Shown here piece by piece: positions 3,111 to 53,618 of a DNA stretch of 64,000 nucleotides. Positions within the stretch are counted from its first letter, which is position 1, and each line of letters begins with the position of its first letter. The stretch lies in NCBI GenBank assembly GCA_016181175.1, contig JACOZV010000003.1, positions 39,773 through 103,772 of the forward strand. The letters run 5' to 3'. Under the pieces are notes generated by a model. That model was not told the DNA's origin, made no database searches, and worked only from the letters and a program-made list of their open reading frames with translations. The translations under genes were made by a program, and so were the position numbers. This DNA comes from Candidatus Yanofskybacteria bacterium (GTDB lineage Bacteria; Patescibacteriota; Minisyncoccia; 2-02-FULL-40-12; IGHO2-01-FULL-4-A).

Positions 3111-3626
3111 ATGAAGTCATTGGCTCGCCCGCTACGCGGGCTCGCCAGCCGTTTTGAATCTAAAATTATGAGAAAATTAATAATTTTTATCATCATCGCA
3201 GTTATTGTCGGCGCAGGCGTGTACTACGCTAGTTTTTATTTCAGAGAGACAAGGGTACAGGAAGAAATTCCTAAAGAAATGCTTACTAATATCAAGACGC
3301 TTCGCCGGGGCAACTTCGAAAAAATTGACATTATCCACGGCGGTTCTGGAAAGGCCCTGTTGCTGGAAGATGCCACTGGGCACAAACTGTTGAGGTTCGA
3401 GAATTTTGAAGTAACTAATGGCCCCGATCTTTACGTTTATCTTTCACGTAATCTCAAACCAACCGGAGACACCGAAAGTTTGGGTGATTTTATAAATCTT
3501 GGGCCTCTCAAGGGTAGCAAGGGTAACCAAAATTATGAGATAAATCAAAATATTGACGGCTACAACACGGCGGTGATCTGGTGCAAACAATTTGGGGTAC
3601 TATTTTCTTTCGCGGTTTTACAATAA
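3111..3626 (+). CDS. DM13 domain-containing secreted/membrane-anchored protein
   Basis: FEVTNGPDLYVYLS...NQNYEI...AVIWC matches the DM13 GPDLxVxL hallmark. A signal/TM segment (MRKLIIFIIIAVIVGAG) suggests the real start may be the internal ATG near 3168. Confidence 0.55.
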   Translation: MKSLARPLRGLASRFESKIMRKLIIFIIIAVIVGAGVYYASFYFRETRVQEEIPKEMLTNIKTLRRGNFEKIDIIHGGSGKALLLEDATGHKLLRFENFEVTNGPDLYVYLSRNLKPTGDTESLGDFINLGPLKGSKGNQNYEINQNIDGYNTAVIWCKQFGVLFSFAVLQ

Positions 3627-3690
3627 TTCGAATTGGTTTGGAGCTTCTCAAAACCACAATTTTGTGGTATTTTTATACTTGGAGGGTTCG

Positions 3691-3830
3691 CCTAATGGTT
3701 AAGGCACCACTCTTTAATCCAGCTCTTGGCGGTGAGGTGGCCGAGTGGGTTGAATGCGAAGCAAGCAGCATTCAACGGGCAACAAAAAGTTGCCCCGGAA
3801 ACATGAGGTCAACAGTTTTTTGATTGAGGC
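3691..3830 (+). repeat. degenerate tRNA-like fragments including an 18-nt exact copy of the tRNA-Ser 5' end (3731-3748), followed by two perfect hairpins and a T-run
   Basis: ggtgaggtggccgagtgg at 3731-3748 equals tRNA-Ser 3846-3863. Next come the hairpins gttgaatgc/gcattcaac (9 bp) and gggcaac/gttgccc (7 bp), and there is no T-arm. An upstream ggagggttcgcctaatggttaaggca resembles a tRNA acceptor plus D-arm. Confidence 0.5.
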
Positions 3831-3845
3831 TTTGTTGAAATTATT

Positions 3846-3935
3846 GGTGAGGTGGCCGAGTGGTTTAAGGCAACGGTCTTGAAAACCGTCATACGGGAAA
3901 CCGTATCGTGAGTTCGAATCTCACCCTCACCACCA
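3846..3935 (+). tRNA. tRNA-Ser (anticodon TGA), type II with long variable arm, CCA encoded
   Basis: Manual fold: acceptor ggtgagg/cctcacc, D-arm gcc-gagtggtttaa-ggc, anticodon stem acggt/accgt with loop cTTGAaa, variable stem atacgg/ccgtat, T-arm gtgag-ttcgaat-ctcac, discriminator A + CCA. Confidence 0.85.
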
Positions 3936-3961
3936 AGAGCTGGGCAAGTGCTATATAAAAA

Positions 3962-4504
3962 ATGGCTCACATAATTGATCTTAAAAATAGGCAGACGGTA
4001 TTGAAACCAGAAAATGGCGAAAGGTTGAATTTAGAGCAATCCTCAATCAGGGTTATTTCCTGGTCCGGCCGACTTTATCACCAGCCCAATAGGTTTGCGG
4101 CTACGGTTGCGGCAGTTATTTTTTTTGGAATCGCTGTTTTGATCCAAATTTTTCAAAAAAATCTCATCACAACCGTTTTTTTTGCTTTGATTGGTGCGGT
4201 AATTTTGCTCAACACAAGACATGAACCCACAAACAATAATTTTGAAATAAACCCGGGCGGCATATCAGTAAATGGCAAAATATACAACTACCGTGAAATC
4301 AAATCGTTTTGGATTGAATATGACCTAACGCTTGGCATAAAAGAATTGAGTCTGCAATTAAAAAAATGGCACACGCCTTATGTTAAAATACCCATAGCCG
4401 AGCAAAATCCTGTACAGCTGAGGTTGGCTCTGCTAGAGTTTTTACCTGAGGTTGAACACAAGGATACACTTGTTGAAATATTGGCGAGAAAATTAGGAAT
4501 TTAA
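3962..4504 (+). CDS. hypothetical membrane protein
   Basis: 180-aa ORF between two tRNAs with two central hydrophobic helices and no recognisable motif. Confidence 0.45.
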   Translation: MAHIIDLKNRQTVLKPENGERLNLEQSSIRVISWSGRLYHQPNRFAATVAAVIFFGIAVLIQIFQKNLITTVFFALIGAVILLNTRHEPTNNNFEINPGGISVNGKIYNYREIKSFWIEYDLTLGIKELSLQLKKWHTPYVKIPIAEQNPVQLRLALLEFLPEVEHKDTLVEILARKLGI

Positions 4505-4505
4505 A

Positions 4506-4577
4506 CCTCTCGTAGTTCAATGGACAGAACGCGAGATTGCGGATCTCGTAATCCAGGTTCGAATCCTGGCGGGAGGA
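4506..4577 (+). tRNA. tRNA-Arg (anticodon GCG)
   Basis: Manual fold: acceptor cctctcg/cgggagg (one G-U), D-stem gttc/gaac, anticodon stem cgaga/tctcg with loop ttGCGga, T-arm ccagg-ttcgaat-cctgg, discriminator A. Confidence 0.75.
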
Positions 4578-4589
4578 CAAAATTGAAAA

Positions 4590-4622
4590 GCCGCCACGTT
4601 CTTTGGGGTGTGGCGGCTTTTC
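4590..4622 (+). terminator. rho-independent terminator after tRNA-Arg
   Basis: gccgccac-gttctttgggg-gtggcggc stem followed by TTTTC. Confidence 0.7.
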
Positions 4623-4661
4623 AATTGGAGAGATTGGTGATATTAAAGTTATAATTAAACC

Positions 4662-6821
4662 ATGTTTGACTTGAACACTCCCATCGAAAAACTCACTCGT
4701 GTCGGACCGAAGTTTTTGGCACGTTTGAAAAAACTGGAAATAAAATCAATCAAAGATTTATTGTGGCACTTCCCGGCACGCTATGACGACTTCAGTAAGT
4801 TATTACTAATATCAGACATTAATAACGCGGGGGAAGTTGTAAGTATTGCCGGCGAAGTGACAGATATCGAAATGGCAAGGTCATGGCGGCGCAGAATGAT
4901 CATTGTTAACGCAACTGTTGAAGACCAAAGCGGTTCTATCCGCGCTGTCTGGTTCAACCAGCCTTATATCGCTGATGCCTTAAAAATCGGGACAAATGTC
5001 AGCTTATCCGGCAAAATTTCCATGGACAAAAATGGCTTATACTTTTCGTCACCATCTTATGAAAAAATTTTTCCGCTAGAAACCGGTTTAACACACACCG
5101 GCCGGCTGGTTCCTGTTTATCCGGAAACCGAAGGCATTACCTCCAAGTACTTGCGTTTTTTGATTAAACCAATCCTTTTAAAAATGAGAGGTGTGCCCGA
5201 TCCCCTACCGTCAGAGATTATTAAAAAATATAACCTGCCAAACTTAGTTAAAGCCATCAATCAAATACATTTTCCGAAAAATCTGGAACAAGCCGAATCG
5301 GCAAGAAAAAGATTTACACTTGAAGAGTTACTTTTATTCCAACTGAGAACGTTGCGCGATCACAGGCAACTCCGAATGTTAAAAGCACCCCGAATTAATT
5401 TTGACAAGAAAATAATATCAGACTTCGTGAAAAATCTGCCCTTTAAATTGACCGATGATCAGAGAGTAGCGGCATATGAAATTCTACAAGACTTGGAACG
5501 GCCTTTTCCCATGAACCGGCTCCTTAACGGCGACGTCGGTTCCGGAAAAACTGTTGTGGCATTAATATCAGCTTTTCAAACAGTTTCAGCCGGCTTTCAG
5601 ACAGTATTCATGGCCCCAACGGAAATACTGGCCAAACAACACTTTGACTCGCTTTGTTCAACCATACTCACTGCAAGTCGCTCGCTCAACGCGGACGCAA
5701 AAATCAAAATCGGATTGTTAACCGGGAGTGAAGCAAAGCAATTCCCGACAGACGAGGTTGTTGAAGAAAAAATCAGTAAGAAATTGCTGGCATTAAAAAT
5801 TGCCAAGGGGCAAATAGATATTGTAATCGGCACCCATGCAGTAATTCAAAAGGGTATAAAATTTGCGAAATTAGGCCTTGTAATAATAGACGAGCAACAC
5901 AGATTCGGAGTTAAACAACGAATGCAGCTAATTAAAAATCAAGAATTGGTGCCGCACCTCCTGTCCATGACCGCGACTCCGATCCCGCGCACACTAGCTC
6001 TGACCGTCTATGGAGACTTGGACGTTTCACTGATTAAAGAAAAACCCAAAGGTAGGCAGCAAATTATCACCAAAATTATTCCGCACAGTAAAAGAAGTGA
6101 CGCTCTTGAATTTGTAGAACAACAAATTCGGTCTGGACGCCAAGTTTTTGTCATATGTCCTCAAATTGAAACATCAAAAACAGAAGAACCGGCGCAAAAC
6201 AAACCAATTTCACAAACAAAATTAGTTTGGGCCGAAATTAAGGCCGTATCCGATGAGTACGAGAAACTCTCAAAAAAAGTTTTTTCCCACCGTAGGGTGG
6301 CAATGCTCCATGGAAAAATGAAACCAAAAGATAAGAATGAAATTATGAAAAAATTCAAAGATGGGCATTATGACATACTGGTATCCACTTCCGTTGTTGA
6401 AGTGGGCATGGACATACCCAACGCCGCCGTCATGATGATTGAGTCGGCCGAAAGATTCGGCTTGGCCCAATTGCATCAATTCCGGGGACGGGTCGGCCGC
6501 GGCAAACACCAATCATATTGCTTATTGTTTACAAGCAGTAACGACACACGGACAACCCGTAATTTAAAAGCACTTGAAAAAACCGACAGCGGTTTTGAGT
6601 TGGCAGAAGCTGATCTAAAAATACGCGGTCCCGGGGAATTTACGGGAACGCAACAGTCAGGCCTTCCTGATTTTGCAATGGCGTCACTTGCCGACATTGA
6701 TCTGATAAAAAAAACCAGGCTTGAAGCCAGGTTATTATTAAAAGATGATCCGGCGCTGAAACGCCATCCGCTCCTTGCCGCCAGATTGGCAGAAATGCAA
6801 AGATTGGTCCATTTTGAATAA
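4662..6821 (+). CDS. recG: ATP-dependent DNA helicase RecG
   Basis: N-terminal wedge/OB region, then Walker A DVGSGKTVVA, DEQHRFGV (DEQH box), TATPIPRTLA, and the RecG-typical C-terminus. Confidence 0.9.
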   Translation: MFDLNTPIEKLTRVGPKFLARLKKLEIKSIKDLLWHFPARYDDFSKLLLISDINNAGEVVSIAGEVTDIEMARSWRRRMIIVNATVEDQSGSIRAVWFNQPYIADALKIGTNVSLSGKISMDKNGLYFSSPSYEKIFPLETGLTHTGRLVPVYPETEGITSKYLRFLIKPILLKMRGVPDPLPSEIIKKYNLPNLVKAINQIHFPKNLEQAESARKRFTLEELLLFQLRTLRDHRQLRMLKAPRINFDKKIISDFVKNLPFKLTDDQRVAAYEILQDLERPFPMNRLLNGDVGSGKTVVALISAFQTVSAGFQTVFMAPTEILAKQHFDSLCSTILTASRSLNADAKIKIGLLTGSEAKQFPTDEVVEEKISKKLLALKIAKGQIDIVIGTHAVIQKGIKFAKLGLVIIDEQHRFGVKQRMQLIKNQELVPHLLSMTATPIPRTLALTVYGDLDVSLIKEKPKGRQQIITKIIPHSKRSDALEFVEQQIRSGRQVFVICPQIETSKTEEPAQNKPISQTKLVWAEIKAVSDEYEKLSKKVFSHRRVAMLHGKMKPKDKNEIMKKFKDGHYDILVSTSVVEVGMDIPNAAVMMIESAERFGLAQLHQFRGRVGRGKHQSYCLLFTSSNDTRTTRNLKALEKTDSGFELAEADLKIRGPGEFTGTQQSGLPDFAMASLADIDLIKKTRLEARLLLKDDPALKRHPLLAARLAEMQRLVHFE

Positions 6822-7216: not shown

Positions 7217-8791
7217 TTAGGTTTTTGGGTAACTCCGCGACTTTGGAGTTACCCAAAAACCCATATATTTACCGAGCATAAGACGGGTTTGAGCCTCAAG
7301 ACCCGGTAACGAACCAAGAAGAATAGTCGTTACCGGAAATAGAATCCACTGAAGTAACATCCAAACATGCTTAAATTTTCCATATCGCGGAGGCCTGGGT
7401 GGCAAAACAAAAATTGTAAATATGGCTGACGTCACCAATCCAATCATCGCAAAGGTCATAATTAAACGCGTAATAAACGGCAAGTTAAAAGACAAGACTG
7501 TTCTGTTAAACTGACTGCCTCCAACAATTACAGGCAACCAGCCAAGTAAAAATATTATAATCGCATTGGTGGCCCATGACCAAAATCTTTCCAACATTGT
7601 AAGGGCCAGGTAAATTTTCTTACCCAGACCGATTGCCTTATTTTTATAAAACCCAAAAATAAAATATGGCACATTTTCTACGCCATATCCCCAACGCCGC
7701 TGTTGCTTATAAACATTTACCATGGTTCGCCAAAACGTTTGGCCCACATTAGCATCCATTGAAACTGGGTAATATAAAGGTTCTACCTTGTATCGACTGT
7801 CATACCGCAAAAAACATTGCCAAAAAATGCGCGAATCCTCAGAAACCATGTTGGTCTGCCAAAAATCCACATCAACCAATGCGGCCAATGGCATTGAATG
7901 GCTAGAAAAAGTAGTGTCACTTTCCATGCGTTCCTGTTTTATCGTATGCCAGAATGTTGAAGAAAAAGCCACAACCCGCGCAAATGACGGTGCTTCCCAA
8001 ATGTTATTGGTATAAAACGGCACTGGCTGATAAGAAGAATGCAGTGGATCTTGCGAAGTAAGAAATGTATAAGTTAGGCGTAAAAAATATTGCGGAAAAA
8101 CGATAGTATCAATATCCAGAGCCGAAACTAAAACGCGATCATGTAAAATTCCCATATTATCTATTACTTCGCGTTTAGTAAATTTACCAGCCCAAGCAAT
8201 GTTAGATCCCTTGCCAGCCAACTCACCCTGTAGCGAAGCTGGGTGTTCAACAATTATCAATTTTAAAAAAACATTTTGGTATTTTGAAATTATTATTTTT
8301 GCTACCGAGGAATTAAAATCTTTCCCTGCCCGTTCTTCCTGAGCAACTACGACAATCATCCTGTTCTTTGGGTAATTTGAATTTGTTAATCCATCCAAGG
8401 TTGCATTTATCATTTCCGGATCTTCCTTGTAGGTAGGTAACAAAACTAAATGATAAATATCCTGCCAAGACTTAATGGCTGGCAACTGATAACTGGCGAC
8501 TGGCAACTGGTTTAAAGCCTTTGACCAGTCAATTTTCATATTCAAGCGCATTTGTTTAAACGCGACCCGCAAATGGAAAGACAAGTAAACCGTTTTAACA
8601 AACCAATAAACATCAAAAATAATTATAAAAATTGCGACAATAACAGGTTGAATAAATGATAAAACAACCGCAGCTATTAAAGTGGCCCAGGCCAGAAATC
8701 CAGGCAAAATCTCAAAAAACCGGTATAAAAACCGGTCCTTTTTATCAATTAAATCAGGGGCTCTACCTAATTTTAAATAACTATCAACCAC
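7217..8791 (-). CDS. membrane-embedded family-2 glycosyltransferase (processive, cellulose-synthase-like QxxRW type)
   Basis: Multiple TM helices flank a cytoplasmic GT domain with VVVAQEERAGK...GKGSNIAWAG and QQRRWGYG (the Q(Q/R)xRW motif). The last 14 codons are encoded by a perfect palindrome. Confidence 0.6.
   Translation of the reverse strand: MVDSYLKLGRAPDLIDKKDRFLYRFFEILPGFLAWATLIAAVVLSFIQPVIVAIFIIIFDVYWFVKTVYLSFHLRVAFKQMRLNMKIDWSKALNQLPVASYQLPAIKSWQDIYHLVLLPTYKEDPEMINATLDGLTNSNYPKNRMIVVVAQEERAGKDFNSSVAKIIISKYQNVFLKLIIVEHPASLQGELAGKGSNIAWAGKFTKREVIDNMGILHDRVLVSALDIDTIVFPQYFLRLTYTFLTSQDPLHSSYQPVPFYTNNIWEAPSFARVVAFSSTFWHTIKQERMESDTTFSSHSMPLAALVDVDFWQTNMVSEDSRIFWQCFLRYDSRYKVEPLYYPVSMDANVGQTFWRTMVNVYKQQRRWGYGVENVPYFIFGFYKNKAIGLGKKIYLALTMLERFWSWATNAIIIFLLGWLPVIVGGSQFNRTVLSFNLPFITRLIMTFAMIGLVTSAIFTIFVLPPRPPRYGKFKHVWMLLQWILFPVTTILLGSLPGLEAQTRLMLGKYMGFWVTPKSRSYPKT
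7221..7260. repeat. perfect 16-bp-arm palindrome (gtttttgggtaactcc-N8-ggagttacccaaaaac) inside the last codons of the GT2 gene
   Basis: Exact inverted repeat read directly from the sequence. It encodes GFWVTPKSRSYPKT on the minus strand and a similar GFWVTPRLWSYPKT on the plus strand. No U-tract follows on either strand. Confidence 0.6.
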
Positions 8792-27023: not shown

Positions 27024-27103
27024 GTTTTACTTACAGTCGCTGTTTAACTTTGATAAAATAATAATTTTGGCTCGCAAACCCGTTAGGGCTACTTCTAACG
27101 GGG
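26993..27103 (-). promoter_or_regulatory. candidate 5'-leader regulatory structure: 15-nt perfect complementarity between the leader and codons 6-10 of the DksA-family gene, competing with a local leader hairpin
   Basis: ccccgttagaagtag (26993-27007, in the CDS) is the exact reverse complement of ctacttctaacgggg (27089-27103, in the leader). The leader segment also forms a local hairpin, cccgttag/ctaacggg. Confidence 0.4.
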
Positions 27104-27477
27104 TCCATAGTGTTTTAGAATAAACTCAAAAAGAAATTGTAGCACGAGATATTATATGTAGGCAAGAAAAAAACGGGCATCGAGGCCCAGAAACAAAAGT
27201 TGCTTAGAGGCTGACACCCGTAGTGCCTGCCCAAGTTTCTAGAAACACCGTTACATCAACACTAACTTAGGTGCTAGTCTAAAAACTTGAGCAGGCTGCA
27301 AAACTGCCGGTCGTTCCATCACATCGGAACAACTAGCCAAAAAGAGAACTATACTTAGTATAAATGCCCCCAAGAATGATGACAAGTAAAATCTGTGGAT
27401 AAGTTGTCATCATTAATCACTAAATTACCCTTAAAAACAAGGATATCTTACAATGATGTCAATGATGTCAACACTTT

Positions 27478-27520
27478 AATAACAATGGTGTCGGGTAACC
27501 CGACACCATTGTTATTATTA
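27478..27520 (-). terminator. long perfect hairpin downstream of the 27543..28934 gene (likely bidirectional terminator)
   Basis: aataacaatggtgtcggg-taac-ccgacaccattgttatt, an 18-bp stem. Confidence 0.6.
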
Positions 27521-27542
27521 AGAAATATATTTTTAAGTACTG

Positions 27543-48301: not shown

Positions 48302-50080
48302 ATGATTAAGGATTTACTTAAAAATTTAGTCATCAAAACTTTGAAAAGCCAAAAAAATTGGCCGAGTTTTGATGTCTATGAAATTACAATAGAGAAACCG
48401 GCCAACCAACAGTTCGGGGACTATGCCACAAACATCGCATTCAGATTAGCCAAACAACTTGGCAAACCGCCGCAAGAAATAGCACAATTTTTAGCTGATG
48501 AAATTTCTAAAATCAAACCAGCCGAAATTGTCAAAGTTGAAGCTAACGACGGGTACGTTAACTTTTTCTTAAGCAGTGAGTTGCTCCGCCAATCACTGGC
48601 TGATATTTATAAAACTCGGGGATCTTTCGGCAAACTAAACATCGGCCGAAAACAGAAAATAATAGTTGAGTATTCCCAGCCCAATATCGCCAAGCAGATG
48701 CACATCGGCCACTTGCGGACAACTGTGCTCGGCGATGCCTTGGCTAACATTTATGAGATGCTGGGTTATAAGGTAATACGCTGGAACTACCTCGGCGACT
48801 GGGGCACACAATTCGGTAAACTAATCACTGCTTACAAACTCTGGAGTGTCCAACTTAGAGGCTCAGCCTCTAAGTACTTAGAGGCTGAGCCTCTAAGTAA
48901 TAAAAAACAGCTAACAATCAGGGTTTTGACAGAGCTTTACGTCAAATTTCACAAAGAATTAAAAGAGCATCCTGAGTTGGAACGCCAGGGACAGGAAGAA
49001 TTTGCAAAACTGGAAGCCAGTGATAAAGAAAACCACAAGCTGTGGGAATGGTTTCGCAAACTATCTATCAAAGAATTTGAGAATATTTATAAAACACTGG
49101 GAGTTAATTTTGATATTTGGCTCGGGGAAAGCAATTTTGAAAAAGACCTCAAGCCATTGGTTAACGATCTCCGCAAGCGGGAGATTGCCGAAATTGGCGA
49201 AGAAGGAGCAATTATTATAAAACTAGACCGATTTAACCTACCACCGGCGTTGATACAAAAAGCTGATGGGGCAAGTTTGTATCTCACACGTGACATCGCG
49301 ACTCTCAAGTACCGCTTAGCTAAATATAAACCGGCAAAACTTCTTTATGTCGTCGGCAATGAGCAATCTCTGCATTTTGAACAGCTTTTTATGATTGCAA
49401 AAGTCTTAGATTTAAACACATCCCAACTCCTTCATATAAAATTTGGCTTGGTACTCGGGGAGGACAAGAAAAAAATGTCCACGCGAGAAGGCGAGGCAAT
49501 CCCGCTTGAAGAAGTAGTTGAAAAAGCCATTAGCTTGGCCCGAGATATTGTAGAAAAAAAGAGTCCGAACATTGCCGAAAAAGAAAAATATCATATCGCT
49601 CAAACCGTTGCTCTTGGCGCACTTAAATACGAAATGCTCAAGGAGCACCGCAATAGCGATATCGTTTTCAGTTGGGACAAAATGCTAGATTTCAGCGGTA
49701 ACAGTGCACCATATTTGCAATACACTTATGCGCGATTATCAAGTATACTGCAAAAAGCCGGCTGGACTTGGAGGTTGAGCCTCCAAGGGAGGCTCAACCT
49801 CTCAAAACTCGGTGAAAAAACAGAGTTGGCCATCATGAAACATCTTTTGGATTTCCCCGAAGTCATCACCGATTCTGCTCGCACTAATCTGACCAATAAT
49901 CTTGCTCTCTATGTTTATGAACTTGCCAACTTGTCCAACCAATTTTATGAAACCTCACCAATTCTCAAAGACGACAATACCTCCCGCCGGAACGCCCGTC
50001 TCGTACTCATACAAACCACGGCCTCTGTTCTCAAATCCGGCCTTAATCTGTTGGGTATAGAAGTCCTAAATAAAATATAA
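48302..50080 (+). CDS. argS: arginine--tRNA ligase
   Basis: HIGHLRTTVLGDA (HIGH), KMSTREG (KMSK) and a C-terminal DALR anticodon-binding domain. It contains two in-frame palindromic repeat elements. Confidence 0.9.
   Translation: MIKDLLKNLVIKTLKSQKNWPSFDVYEITIEKPANQQFGDYATNIAFRLAKQLGKPPQEIAQFLADEISKIKPAEIVKVEANDGYVNFFLSSELLRQSLADIYKTRGSFGKLNIGRKQKIIVEYSQPNIAKQMHIGHLRTTVLGDALANIYEMLGYKVIRWNYLGDWGTQFGKLITAYKLWSVQLRGSASKYLEAEPLSNKKQLTIRVLTELYVKFHKELKEHPELERQGQEEFAKLEASDKENHKLWEWFRKLSIKEFENIYKTLGVNFDIWLGESNFEKDLKPLVNDLRKREIAEIGEEGAIIIKLDRFNLPPALIQKADGASLYLTRDIATLKYRLAKYKPAKLLYVVGNEQSLHFEQLFMIAKVLDLNTSQLLHIKFGLVLGEDKKKMSTREGEAIPLEEVVEKAISLARDIVEKKSPNIAEKEKYHIAQTVALGALKYEMLKEHRNSDIVFSWDKMLDFSGNSAPYLQYTYARLSSILQKAGWTWRLSLQGRLNLSKLGEKTELAIMKHLLDFPEVITDSARTNLTNNLALYVYELANLSNQFYETSPILKDDNTSRRNARLVLIQTTASVLKSGLNLLGIEVLNKI
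48854..48899. repeat. 46-bp tandem duplication of a 23-nt self-palindromic unit (cttagaggctSagcctctaagta x2) inside argS, translated in two different frames
   Basis: Read directly from the sequence. The unit cttagaggctcagcctctaag is its own reverse complement apart from the central base. It encodes LRGSASKYLEAEPLSN. Confidence 0.75.
49771..49801. repeat. 14-bp-arm inverted repeat (gaggttgagcctcc-aag-ggaggctcaacctc) inside argS
   Basis: Exact inverted repeat encoding WRLSLQGRLNLS. It shares a gagcctc core with the 48854 element. Confidence 0.7.
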
Positions 50081-50117: not shown

Positions 50118-53100
50118 ATGGCCGATTTTGATTTCCCCAAAGTAGAGGAAAAAATCCTCCATTTTTGGAAAGATCGGAAAATTTTTGAGAGATCTCTTGA
50201 AAACCGCGAACACGCGCGGCGGTTTGTTTTTTTTGAAGGGCCGCCGACAGCCAACGGCAAACCGGGCATACACCATTTCCTCGGCCGCATATTGAAAGAT
50301 CTTTTTGTCCGCTACAAAACTATGCGGGGTTACCTGGTTGCACGCAAAGCTGGCTGGGATACACACGGCTTACCGGTTGAAATTGAGGTAGAAAAAGAAC
50401 TTGAATTAAAAGATAAAAAAGAAATAGAAAAATACGGCATAGCCAAATTCAACGCAAAAGCCAAACAAAGTGTCTGGAAATATAAAGATGAATGGGAAAG
50501 ATTTACTCACCGCATTGGTTTCTGGTTAAACATGGGCGAGCCTTATATAACTTATGATTGGAAATACATGGAATCGCTTTGGTGGATCATCTCACAAATA
50601 GACAAACGTAAACTTCTCTATCAAGGTCACAAGATCCTTCCATGGTGTCCTCGCTGTGGTACTGCATTATCAAGCCATGAAGTCGCGCAGGGCTATGAAG
50701 ACGTAACCGAAACCTCGGTCTATGTTAAATTCAAACTCAAAAACCCGGAAAAAATTTTACCAGTTACCAGTGACCGGTTACCGGTTACCTACTTATTAGC
50801 TTGGACAACAACCCCATGGACACTTCCGGGTAATGTTGCCTTAGCCGTAGGAGAAAAAATCAAATATGCAATCGTACGAAAAGACAACGACTATTTATTG
50901 CTTGCCAAGGATTTAATTGAAAAAGTTGTACCCGATTCACAAATAATTCAAGAAATAAAAGGCAAAGATCTTGTTGGACTAGAATACAAACCGATTTTTA
51001 ATATTCCCGTCCTTCGACAAGGCTTCGGAGGACAAGCCTCATATAAAATTTATCCGGCCGATTTTGTCACCACAAAGGAAGGCACAGGCATTGTCCATAC
51101 AGCCGTAATGTACGGCGAGGATGACTATGAGTTGGGTAAAAAAATAGGCTTACCCAAACACCACACCGTTGATGAACAGGGTAAATTTACCAAAGAGGTA
51201 AAAGAATTCGCCGGTCAATACGTAAAAGATGCTGAAAAAGGAATAATAGAATATCTTGGTTCCCACGGACTACTTTTCAAAACGGAACAATTTACACACT
51301 CTTATCCGCATTGTTGGCGTTGCAACAATCCGCTTCTTTATTACGCAAAAGACTCCTGGTTTGTGGCAATGTCTAAACTCCGCAAACAACTTCTTAAAAA
51401 TAACAAAAAAATAAACTGGGTGCCTAACTATCTCAAGAACGGCCGTTTTGGCGAATTCTTAAAAGAAGCGAAAGACTGGGCTTTTTCACGCGAACGTTAT
51501 TGGGGAACGCCGTTGCCAATCTGGCAATGCCAAAATTGTAAAGAACAAAAAGTAATAGGCTCACTGGATGAATTAGAAAAACATAGATACCACGGCAAAA
51601 ATACATTTTTTGTTTTGCGTCATGGATTCAGCACTAAAAATGGCGCCCACGGACAAGACGCGATTACCGCCTCAAAACTTGAACATGACAAGTATGAACT
51701 AACGGACGATGGAATAGAACAGGTGCAAAAAACAGCTGATGAGCTTCTCGCAAGCGGGGGAGTAGATGTTATTTTCTCATCCCCGTTCTTAAGAACACGG
51801 CAATCAGCTGAACTCGTTGCCAAAAAGCTAGGCATGAAAGTAACGATAGATGCCAGGCTAAAAGAACTGGATCACGGCACTGTTTGTGAGGGTCAAACAC
51901 ACATGGTTTGCGTTTCACCCGATACTATTTTGACATTTGACACCAAATACGGAGACGGCGAAAGCTGGCGAGATGTCAAAATCAGAATGGCCGAGATTAT
52001 CCGTGAACTTGACCAAAAATATGAAAATAAAAAAATCCTGCTCGTAAGCCACGGCGACCCGATTTGGATACTAGAAGGGTTTACCAAAAACTGGAACGAT
52101 GAAGAAATGCTAAACGGACGAGGCGGCATCTATCTTCGAGAGGGTCATATGAAAAAAATTGAGTTGAAAAATCTTCCATATAACAATCGGGCCGAACTTG
52201 ATATGCACCGGCCGTATGTTGACGAGATATCGCTTAAGTGTGAAAAATGCGGAAATAAAATGTCCCGGATTAAAGATATCGCCGATGTTTGGTTTGACTC
52301 CGGCTCAATGCCGTACGCGCAGTGGCATTATCCATTTGAAAACAAAAAACGTTTTGATGAAAATTTCCCTGCTGATTTCGTTGCCGAAGGTATAGATCAG
52401 ACTCGCGGCTGGTTCTACACATTGCTTGCCGTATCTACTTTGCTTGGCCTGGAAACTCCATATAAAAACGTTATTTCTTACAGCCACGTTCTGGATGAGA
52501 AAGGCAAAAAAATGTCTAAATCTACCGGCAATGTGGTGGATCCGCGGATTATTATAGAAAAATTCGGAGTAGATGCCGCGAGGTGGTATTTTTATACAGT
52601 AAACAATCCTGCTGATTCTAAATTGTTTTCCATAAATGACGTTGGCAAAAAACTTAACGGTTTCATTATGACGCTGATGAACTCTTTGAGGTTTTTTGAG
52701 TTATATGGCAAACCCAGCAACAAAAAACCCAAAGCAGTTCCAACGAACCAATTGGATTCTTGGATACTTTCTCGACTAAATACTACTGCGGGGATTGTCG
52801 CCAAGTCCATGGACGGTTACGATCCCACAACTGCCACCCGCGAAATGGAAAAGTTTGTAGTGGAAGACTTATCAAATTGGTGGATCCGTCGCTCGCGCCA
52901 GCGTTTTCAGAAACCAGAAAATAAAGAAGAGCTTAGCCATGCGGTAGAACTTTTGCGGCACCTTCTGGTGGAATTAAGCAAAATGCTGGCACCGTTTACA
53001 CCATTTCTTGCTGATCATATTTATAAAAAACTTGATAACCGCAAAGAATCAGTCCATTTGGAAGATTGGCCGAAAATAAAAAAGAAGCTCATCAATCATG

Positions 53101-53618
53101 AGCTTGAAACACAAATGGCCGAATTGCGCGAAACCGCAACGCAAGGCCTTGCCCAAAGAAAAGAACGGGGGATAAAAGTGCGCCAGCCGCTTGCCGGCAT
53201 CACGCTCAAGAAAGCCAATAAATTTGACCCCGGCTTGGAACAACTACTTTTAGATGAATTGAATGTTAAAAATGTACTCTACGAGACCGGCCAACAAGAT
53301 ACTATAAGTATAGACCACAAACTTACGCCCGATCTGTTAATGGAGGGCTATGCCCGAGAAATAATGCGTCAGATTCAGGATATGCGAAAAGAAGCCAAAT
53401 ATAAATTATATGAAAAAGTACATGCGGCTTGGGAAAGTCAAAATCAGGAAGTTATTGAAGCCTTAAAAAAACACGAAAAGGAAATAGCTGAAGACACACT
53501 GCTTTCGGAATTTAGTCGCGGACACGATCCAAAAAAAATTTTTGACGTTGAAAAAGAGTTTGAACTAGGACCACAAGCTAAAATTTGGTTAGGAGTCCAC
53601 GCTAAAAATAGGTTATGA
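50118..53618 (+). CDS. ileS: isoleucine--tRNA ligase (type 2-like) carrying an inserted histidine-phosphatase (PGAM-like) domain
   Basis: PPTANGKPGIHHFLGR (HIGH), editing-domain WTTTPWTLPGN and TGIVHTAVMYGEDD, KKMSKSTGN (KMSKS). Between the WQCQNCK zinc knuckle and DMHRPYVDEI lies about 200 aa with LRHGFSTKNG (RHGxxxxN), LTDDGIEQVQKTA, VIFSSPFLRTRQSA and LLVSHGDPI, the complete histidine-phosphatase motif set. Confidence 0.9.
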   Translation: MADFDFPKVEEKILHFWKDRKIFERSLENREHARRFVFFEGPPTANGKPGIHHFLGRILKDLFVRYKTMRGYLVARKAGWDTHGLPVEIEVEKELELKDKKEIEKYGIAKFNAKAKQSVWKYKDEWERFTHRIGFWLNMGEPYITYDWKYMESLWWIISQIDKRKLLYQGHKILPWCPRCGTALSSHEVAQGYEDVTETSVYVKFKLKNPEKILPVTSDRLPVTYLLAWTTTPWTLPGNVALAVGEKIKYAIVRKDNDYLLLAKDLIEKVVPDSQIIQEIKGKDLVGLEYKPIFNIPVLRQGFGGQASYKIYPADFVTTKEGTGIVHTAVMYGEDDYELGKKIGLPKHHTVDEQGKFTKEVKEFAGQYVKDAEKGIIEYLGSHGLLFKTEQFTHSYPHCWRCNNPLLYYAKDSWFVAMSKLRKQLLKNNKKINWVPNYLKNGRFGEFLKEAKDWAFSRERYWGTPLPIWQCQNCKEQKVIGSLDELEKHRYHGKNTFFVLRHGFSTKNGAHGQDAITASKLEHDKYELTDDGIEQVQKTADELLASGGVDVIFSSPFLRTRQSAELVAKKLGMKVTIDARLKELDHGTVCEGQTHMVCVSPDTILTFDTKYGDGESWRDVKIRMAEIIRELDQKYENKKILLVSHGDPIWILEGFTKNWNDEEMLNGRGGIYLREGHMKKIELKNLPYNNRAELDMHRPYVDEISLKCEKCGNKMSRIKDIADVWFDSGSMPYAQWHYPFENKKRFDENFPADFVAEGIDQTRGWFYTLLAVSTLLGLETPYKNVISYSHVLDEKGKKMSKSTGNVVDPRIIIEKFGVDAARWYFYTVNNPADSKLFSINDVGKKLNGFIMTLMNSLRFFELYGKPSNKKPKAVPTNQLDSWILSRLNTTAGIVAKSMDGYDPTTATREMEKFVVEDLSNWWIRRSRQRFQKPENKEELSHAVELLRHLLVELSKMLAPFTPFLADHIYKKLDNRKESVHLEDWPKIKKKLINHELETQMAELRETATQGLAQRKERGIKVRQPLAGITLKKANKFDPGLEQLLLDELNVKNVLYETGQQDTISIDHKLTPDLLMEGYAREIMRQIQDMRKEAKYKLYEKVHAAWESQNQEVIEALKKHEKEIAEDTLLSEFSRGHDPKKIFDVEKEFELGPQAKIWLGVHAKNRL

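Follow-up and report, generated by a model that had tools for sequence, protein, structure and literature searches.

Palindromic units in frame within argS of a Candidatus Yanofskybacteria bacterium: probable REP/REPIN-type copies of a repeat family spread among Patescibacteria

Why should an intact gene for an aminoacyl-tRNA synthetase hold stretches of perfect DNA symmetry? The question is raised by argS, which encodes arginine--tRNA ligase (ArgRS), in a 64-kb stretch of contig JACOZV010000003.1 from a Candidatus Yanofskybacteria bacterium (Patescibacteria, or candidate phyla radiation, CPR); the whole of this stretch is called the window below. An earlier note on this DNA had reported two palindromic elements in frame in argS, here termed E1 and E2, and had suggested a selfish palindrome that tolerates in-frame insertion, as with the Rickettsia palindromic elements (RPEs). 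We propose, with a probability of roughly 0.8, that both elements are members of a 23-nt family, A-CTTRGWGGYTSARCCWCYAAG-T, of the repetitive extragenic palindrome (REP) or REP doublet (REPIN) type, which is spread through Patescibacteria and whose cognate gene is an IS200-like Y1 (HUH) transposase of the kind known as REP-associated tyrosine transposase (RAYT) or TnpA_REP. The idea of a selfish, frame-tolerant palindrome is thereby retained, and the nearest known system becomes the REP/REPIN and RAYT pair rather than the RPE family. The features on which the argument rests are the following.

48302..50080, + strand: argS (arginine--tRNA ligase), an intact open reading frame (ORF) of 592 aa that carries all three units.
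48853..48898, no strand assigned: E1 as a whole, a perfect 46-nt palindrome forming a REPIN-like inverted doublet, at about residues 185-200 of ArgRS.
48853..48875, no strand assigned: E1 unit 1, ACTTAGAGGCTCAGCCTCTAAGT, with an 11-bp stem and a 1-nt centre, read as (Q)LRGSASK, with 0 mismatches to the family consensus.
48876..48898, no strand assigned: E1 unit 2, ACTTAGAGGCTGAGCCTCTAAGT, in inverted orientation with centre G, read in a different frame as (Y)LEAEPLS.
49766..49788, no strand assigned: E2 unit, ACTTGGAGGTTGAGCCTCCAAGG, a TTGG variant with 1 mismatch (the last base) to the consensus, read as TWRLSLQG.
49788..49801, no strand assigned: second arm of E2, GGAGGCTCAACCTC, a truncated second unit in inverted orientation that forms a 14-bp-stem hairpin with 49771-49784.

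Both elements were recovered where they had first been seen, the earlier register of E1 (48854-48899) being equivalent to the one used here. The units of E1 have the general form ACTTAGAGGCT[C/G]AGCCTCTAAGT (23 nt each) and adjoin with a spacer of 0, giving arms of 23 bp with a loop of 0. E1 had been described as a 46-bp tandem duplication of a 23-nt unit. Two units are indeed present, and they are translated in different frames (LRGSASK versus (Y)LEAEPLS) as had been said, but because one is the reverse complement of the other (centre C in the first, G in the second) they form an inverted doublet and not a tandem one. Folded as DNA, the hairpin predicted for E1 has an energy of -24.3 kcal/mol (z -11), and folded as RNA one of -39.4 kcal/mol; the folding z-score goes from -5.8 for a single unit to -11 for the doublet. 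E2 is a third unit plus an extra inverted arm (49766-49801). Its inverted repeat consists, as reported before, of 14-nt arms, GAGGTTGAGCCTCC at 49771-49784 and GGAGGCTCAACCTC at 49788-49801, separated by a 3-nt loop; its predicted folding energy is -17.6 kcal/mol for DNA and -29.6 kcal/mol for RNA.

Searches of the window with the 21-nt unit at up to 3 mismatches gave 3 matches, against 0 in 100 shuffles, and the degenerate 23-nt consensus at up to 5 mismatches likewise gave 3, against 0 in 10 shuffles; a 13-nt core had 8 strand-matches, against a mean of 0.1 in shuffles. Since the shuffled controls yield no such matches, chance can be dismissed as the source of the argS units. Beyond these three units, no further copy was found in the 64-kb window by searches to 5 mismatches and with half-sites. 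Scanned for perfect hairpins whose stem is 9 bp or longer, the window gives 50 records, compared to 0-5 in shuffles, and those outside argS are nearly all intergenic and terminator-like. Searching argS against Rfam gave only sub-threshold matches, to eukaryotic miRNA hairpin models. A 12-nt match that had been pointed out at 27.2 kb is present, without a partner arm:

27203..27214, + strand: possible decayed half-unit, CTTAGAGGCTGA, an exact 12-nt match that is uncertain and may be due to chance.

The half-unit lies in an unusually long intergenic gap (27024-27542, 520 bp), which also hosts a perfect palindrome with 20-bp arms at 27477-27517. No Rfam family reached its gathering score across 26-30 kb of the window. 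Elsewhere in the window, a perfect hairpin with a 17-bp stem (7220-7261) codes for the last 14 codons of a 524-aa ORF on the - strand (7217..8791) that has no Pfam match; the TAA stop follows directly after the stem, making this a terminator-like hairpin within coding sequence.

The gene that carries the three units has an intact reading frame. Its product is 100% identical to a protein (P0001) named arginine--tRNA ligase of Ca. Yanofskybacteria, which has the Pfam domains Arg_tRNA_synt_N, tRNA-synt_1d and DALR_1, and an alignment of 31 ArgRS sequences showed that every invariant column is retained. In an AlphaFold2 model of the protein (predicted local distance difference test, pLDDT, 88; predicted template modelling score, pTM, 0.89), the sole stretch with a pLDDT below 50 is residues 186-201, that is, E1, which is modelled as coil with helices 170-185 and 206-222 on either side, and E2 falls in the linker ahead of the anticodon-binding domain (pLDDT about 73-89). 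On this prediction E1 occupies a low-confidence loop of ArgRS, which we count toward tolerance. E1 amounts to about 14 added residues compared to the nearest orthologs without it, in keeping with the previous remark that this region is longer than usual. For the window itself, the modest conclusion is that argS is an intact gene carrying three copies of a selfish hairpin.

The wider distribution of the unit was determined by scanning the degenerate 21-nt pattern CTTRGWGGYTSARCCWCYAAG against one genome per bacterial or archaeal species (596 Gb); lineage names were taken from record titles, and the counts are lower bounds from a possibly unrepresentative sample. At least 120 loci matched, the chance expectation being, by our own estimate, about 20-35 matches over the 596 Gb. 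Among the matches listed, 110 loci were labelled Patescibacteria/CPR, 7 were labelled no further than "bacterium" and 3 came from other phyla, with imperfect units; the labels comprised Paceibacterota, Yanofsky-, Niyogi-, Lloyd-, Zambryski-, Yonath-, Nomura-, Campbell-, Sungii- and Moran-bacteria, and "Saccharibacteria". There were no matches in 2.9 million viral contigs, and a phage origin of the units was rejected on this ground. In the matches listed, the bases that flank the pattern, which were absent from the search, are A in 91% and T in 89% of cases, and the true unit is therefore the 23-nt A-CTTRGWGGYTSARCCWCYAAG-T. Stem pairs left free by the pattern covary, being complementary in 140/146 and 139/146 of the units listed, with G-T at the two well-paired free positions in only 2/146 at one and in none at the other; perfect 10-bp arms occur in 103 of the same 146. 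Because neither the flanking bases nor the stem covariation was imposed by the pattern, we conclude that this is a real repeat family. Its flank consensus is (C/T)(C/A/T)A-CTT...AAG-T(G/A/T)(G/A), and GT[GAT]G-like bases stand solely 3' of the unit, overlapping the stem.

The features of the argS copies recur in this family. Inverted doublets were also seen at three other loci (L038, L065 and L108), and the sequence of E1 unit 1 occurs identically four times around and inside a transposase gene (locus L044). Among the scan matches listed, CTTGGAGGTTGAGCCTCCAAG was found 6 times, and TWRLSLQV, a peptide of the same class as that of E2, is encoded at L085 and L115. In a sister metagenome-assembled genome (MAG), JACPNJ01, at least 13 units that match the pattern are spread over 4 contigs, compared to 3 units, all in argS, in the 64-kb window.

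Locus L044, from that same MAG (JACPNJ01, which also contains the argS ortholog locus L001), links the units with a candidate mobilizing gene. Five units lie around and within an ORF of 220 aa that matches Pfam Y1_Tnp (PF01797, "Transposase IS200 like") at 32.9 bits, against a cutoff of 23, and whose only NCBIfam match is NF047646, "REP-associated tyrosine transposase", at 31 bits against a cutoff of 80. Among the matches listed, 15 scan loci hold a homolog of this ORF at 42-64% identity, in which the HUH and Tyr motifs (NPNH[FY]H and SAY[IV]NLN) are conserved. The layout of these 15 loci recurs, with one unit 8-26 nt upstream of the transposase gene and another at or after its C-terminus. In most of them a unit also lies in frame near aa 59, ahead of the HUH motif, and in most there is a further one near aa 150, directly following the Tyr motif. 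Counting by Pfam in related loci, 10 host ORFs match Y1_Tnp. The ORFs adjacent to the L044 gene are of ordinary size, none of them large or tnpB-sized. A CRISPR array had been entertained for clusters such as L044 and was rejected, given that the spacing is irregular and that the cluster surrounds and enters the Y1 transposase ORF. Judged from gene and repeat order, the arrangement of units around the Y1 gene is the layout of a REPtron, a transposase gene together with its REP units.

The units at each transposase gene are of the variant typical of that genome. JACPNJ01 has two transposase paralogs that are 64% identical (L044 1053-1712 and L075 6976-7608); AGAGG-type units flank and interrupt the first, and AGTGG/GTAGC-type units the second. 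The argS doublet is of the second, AGTGG type in JACPNJ01 (L001) and of the first, AGAGG type in the window.

Open frames of at least 150 aa, checked against Pfam in aggregate, served as a proxy for genes, the three non-CPR matches being dropped. At least 146 copies remained, in 117 Patescibacteria-type loci, so that the search for the unit elsewhere, which the earlier note had proposed as a check, supported its idea. By this proxy 84 of the 146 listed units (58%) lie in long ORFs of unrelated genes, 67 of them at least 25 aa from either end, compared to 83% for random positions in the same loci. Units are somewhat depleted from coding DNA, yet are found more within genes than between them. 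The host ORFs identified by Pfam, besides the Y1_Tnp genes, comprise class I aminoacyl-tRNA synthetases (4), ArgRS (3), MiaA (4), TGT (3), two each of TopA, LigA, MnmA, RNase HII and TruB, and further LeuRS, a class II synthetase, XseA, Fmt and glycosyltransferases. In two distant ArgRS genes (L070 and L111) the unit is in the N-terminal region and not at the sites used in the window. Three reading-frame classes were distinguished among the listed units, LGGSTSK-like (43), LEVEPPS-like (37) and TWRLNLQV-like (4), and E2 of the window belongs to the rare third class.

Orthologs of the window protein were compared in the 31-sequence ArgRS alignment and through the DNA of six of them. The E1 peptide is confined to the window protein, P0002, P0003 and P0006; P0004 and P0005 (76-77% identity to the window ArgRS) are without it, as are all more distant relatives, so that close orthologs do present empty sites, the other point that the earlier note had proposed to check. 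The argS gene of P0004 has no palindrome whatever, neither E1 nor E2, and that of P0005 is without E1; the MAG of P0004 nevertheless has a unit in fmt (L032). Where E1 is present, its sequence differs between lineages. In L001 (P0003) it is a perfect 54-nt palindrome with 27-bp arms, in which AGTGG replaces AGAGG in all four arms, in L002 (P0002) it has 21-bp arms with GGTT..AACC replacing GGCT..AGCC, and in L003 (P0006) it is decaying, with 20/23 positions paired; extra partial unit ends adjoin E1 in L001 and L002. The E2 region, directly after the conserved YARL..IL.KAG, is hypervariable in the alignment, and distinct palindromes occupy the site in L002/L003, in L125 and in L126, the last being CCCCCACTTGGAAGCTCAACTTCCAAGTGGGGG. 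There are no G-T (G-U) pairs in the arms of the argS palindromes of the window or of four orthologs.

A simple neighbour-joining distance tree built on 548 gap-free columns united the window protein with P0002-P0005 (100/100 bootstraps), leaving P0006 outside this clade, and grouped P0003 with P0004 (72/100). The presence of E1 is discordant with this gene tree, and several gains, several losses or recombination are thus needed; as far as a simple tree can tell, its topology conflicts with E1 having been inserted once and then inherited vertically. The E1-bearing orthologs also have a small adjacent indel in common.

The same alignment contains further private insertions in ArgRS, at columns 262-265, 357-370, 426-449 and 505-515, exemplified by S[AD]SRR, AKGVPWQGLPSQPM, LGL-bracketed segments of 20-25 residues and AERQ/TVRGPTSDSGG. 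At least one of them, at aa 420-432 in L003, is coded by a perfect palindrome with 18-bp arms. A second set of perfect palindromes was also noted, whose arms measure 11-25 bp and whose tip is GAGG-N5-CCTC, reading GAGGYCSGACCTC in 3 of the 5 copies. Several are in frame in argS orthologs, including nt 1439-1465 of the gene in L125 (gene 3274-5010) and nt 1484-1516 of the gene in L002 (gene 145-1929), and one is intergenic, between the tmRNA gene and smpB in L001 (3738-3788); the two others are at L003 4603-4639 and 4832-4868. This set may represent another repeat family of the same lifestyle.

Taken together, these results make REP/REPIN-type units tolerated in permissive ArgRS loops the simplest account, and our best reading, of E1 and E2. 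A possible course of events can be outlined. The hairpin would fold on single-stranded DNA and would be cut and rejoined by the Y1 transposase, to which we ascribe the mobilization of the units; in this way units would be copied or moved to new sites, or beside old ones to give doublets. The cleavage and rejoining step is modelled by analogy on E. coli TnpA_REP (PMC6006769). Most landings would be intragenic because these genomes are about 83% open frame. Selection would then spare only landings that preserve the frame, bring in no stops and lie in permissive surface loops, and it is the survivors that we observe. Those of argS are a doublet, which lies in a disordered loop of the catalytic domain, and one unit with a half-unit, which lie in the linker ahead of the domain that binds the anticodon. 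At the level of sequence and model, they add or replace about 16 and about 12 residues, respectively, of an otherwise intact enzyme. Resident copies might finally be renewed by replacement, re-insertion or hairpin-templated correction: the copies are symmetric and the differences between lineages track the dominant variant of each genome, which argues for renewal rather than slow independent mutation.

Several observations weigh against this account. Copy number per genome is modest, with at least 13 units in the best-sampled MAG and not hundreds, and the transposases score 19.8-31.4 bits, far under the cutoff of 80 of the NCBIfam RAYT equivalog. The 5' GTAG/GTGG or CGTC tag that is canonical in REPs is absent at the unit, and the 64-kb window has no further unit and, by tblastn at E values up to 1e-3, no transposase homolog. 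The indel shared by E1-bearing orthologs fits one ancestral insertion followed by losses less awkwardly than it fits repeated gains, and the patchy pattern in argS could also stem from recombination between lineages.

The last points lead to the alternative that the repeats are of REP type but dead in this genome, being inherited vertically and owing their symmetry to hairpin-templated repair or to recent age. Such fossils would explain why the 64 kb contain neither a transposase nor another unit, why E1 is already decaying in L003 and why its bearers have the adjacent indel in common. E1 and E2 of the window are, however, all but perfect, with 0 and 1 mismatches to the consensus, sister MAGs have transposases and several units, and the window displays only part of the genome. 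We consider this explanation the less likely one, but a fair possibility for this particular genome. The stem-loops could instead be a selected cis-acting structure of the argS mRNA or DNA that regulates the gene through a ribosome pause, an RNase site or stabilization of the mRNA. Symmetry has been kept by compensatory changes among orthologs that are 76-79% identical (27-bp arms in L001, 21-bp arms in L002), and the RNA hairpins are predicted to be very stable (-39 and -30 kcal/mol), so that an effect on translation is possible. Against regulation stand the closest orthologs, which are without one or both elements, and the dozens of unrelated genes and intergenic sites that hold the same unit; moreover, G-T (G-U) pairs are rare across the family at the two well-paired free stem positions, in addition to being missing from the argS arms, and no bacterial Rfam family matches. 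A regulatory structure is accordingly an improbable explanation of the palindromes.

The differing perfect palindromes of the orthologs made us consider first that each had arisen within argS by template switching (quasi-palindrome correction or inverted duplication), unrelated to any dispersed element. Templated copying would be expected to yield arms that are all perfectly Watson-Crick paired, as they are here; in L002 and L003 the palindrome at the E2 site has a 3' arm that overlaps the conserved D-L-Q-K-L coding sequence, as if the 5' arm had been copied from it, and E2 of the window has an extra partial inverted arm. This idea was dropped as the main explanation given the more than 100 unrelated loci: the 23-nt unit, including flanks that were not part of the search, recurs at 117 or more other loci, both within unrelated genes and flanking the transposase gene. 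Template switching may help to keep the arms identical, but the source of the sequence is unexplained by it, and we hold a purely local origin to be highly improbable. Membership in the RPE family proper, or a classical MITE (miniature inverted-repeat transposable element) with terminal inverted repeats and target-site duplications, seems to us scarcely credible. The behaviour is the same, namely in-frame residence in housekeeping genes (PMC3733652), but here the 23-nt unit is the entire hairpin with no non-palindromic core, its flanks show no consistent target duplication, and RPEs are longer elements of an alphaproteobacterial genus (PMC3733652), the gene associated with the present unit being a Y1 transposase.

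A stronger version of the REP/REPIN interpretation may also be put forward, tentatively and with more doubt than belief. It would see in these data an ancient REP-RAYT partnership adapted to life in genes, in which one 23-nt family and its transposase have been kept across many Patescibacteria lineages, with resident copies repeatedly rewritten to the current variant of the genome. Life would be mainly in frame in essential genes because tiny genomes have almost no intergenic space. If this were true, the family would be a steady source of lineage-specific loop insertions in CPR housekeeping proteins, and the fixed-position, in-frame units of the transposase gene might serve its own control.

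Two synthetase genes seen in passing carry unrelated domains. The neighbour of argS (window 50118-53618, + strand) encodes an isoleucyl-tRNA synthetase of 1166 aa. The two halves of its catalytic domain are separated by a histidine-phosphatase domain that is complete (Pfam His_Phos_1, aa 499-652, E 7.5e-27), an arrangement on record also for the orthologs at L001, L125 and L126. Another case of a domain embedded in a CPR synthetase is a unit-bearing leucyl-tRNA synthetase ORF (L026 4157-6130, - strand) with a nucleotidyltransferase-like domain (Pfam Aminoglyc_resit, aa 74-206).

One hairpin family associated with a RAYT-like transposase, present in many Patescibacteria lineages and mostly in frame, including in essential translation and DNA enzymes, offers a concrete way in which some of the unusual insertions of CPR proteins could have arisen. 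Annotators and structure predictors should be warned that peptides of the kind of LGGSTSK, LEVEPPS and TWRLNLQV are repeat-encoded. With its empty and filled ortholog sites and two paralog-variant pairs in one MAG, the family is also a tractable system for studying how REPs spread and keep their symmetry. In the limited literature collection that was searched, no paper was found joining REP, REPIN or RAYT with CPR, Parcubacteria or Patescibacteria. Intragenic REPs as such have already been described; their setting in CPR, a habit that is mostly intragenic and a unit conserved from lineage to lineage look new.

Among known systems, RPEs are the classic in-frame case, and share with the CPR units the residence of palindromic repeats in functional genes of a reduced genome, with the peptides in permissive regions. 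They measure about 100-150 bp, RPE-1-type elements being much longer than the CPR unit, and to our knowledge have no dedicated transposase. Size and host set the CPR units apart, with 23 nt for the unit, 46 nt for the doublet and another phylum. From MITEs they differ in being wholly hairpin and in having no consistent direct duplication in their flanks.

The textbook picture of REPs and REPINs is of palindromic units of about 20-40 nt that lie outside genes, are largely species-specific and have been described chiefly in Proteobacteria. With the REPtron, in which REPs or REPINs (also termed bacterial interspersed mosaic elements, BIMEs) accompany a RAYT gene, the CPR family has in common a short hairpin unit (23 nt, with arms of 10-11 bp), inverted doublets such as E1, copies dispersed over the loci sampled, a Y1/HUH gene flanked on both sides and paralog-specific unit variants (L044 versus L075). 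A transposase gene flanked by the same units was seen at 15 related loci, and none in the window. The CPR family departs from the REPtron in that 58% of the listed units, and all three in the window, are inside long ORFs and not extragenic, in its apparently low copy number and in transposases that fall under the NCBIfam RAYT cutoff. REPs have been described as species-specific (PMC6006769), whereas nearly the same unit is common here to many Patescibacteria candidate lineages. Intragenic REPs have been reported as monomers or dimers coding for 20-30 residues in known genes, among them a tRNA synthetase, DNA ligase, TruB and repair genes, some genes having two (Di Nocera et al. 2013, PMC3733652). 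The spectrum of host genes is similar to that of the CPR units; the intragenic copies were a minority of a large extragenic population in that study and are the majority of the units sampled here. Similar in organization, when compared by description, is TnpA_REP subclass 2.4 (Quentin et al. 2018, PMC6006769), in which REP units occur in frame within tnpA_REP as well as flanking it, as they do in the CPR transposase gene. Subclass 2.4 is found mainly in Cyanobacteria and Bacteroidetes and has GT[AG]G 'double-foot' REPs with insertions generally between the HuH and Tyr motifs (PMC6006769), and the CPR genes differ in host, in the foot of the unit and in the position of their two internal units, one ahead of the HUH motif and the other directly behind the Tyr motif.

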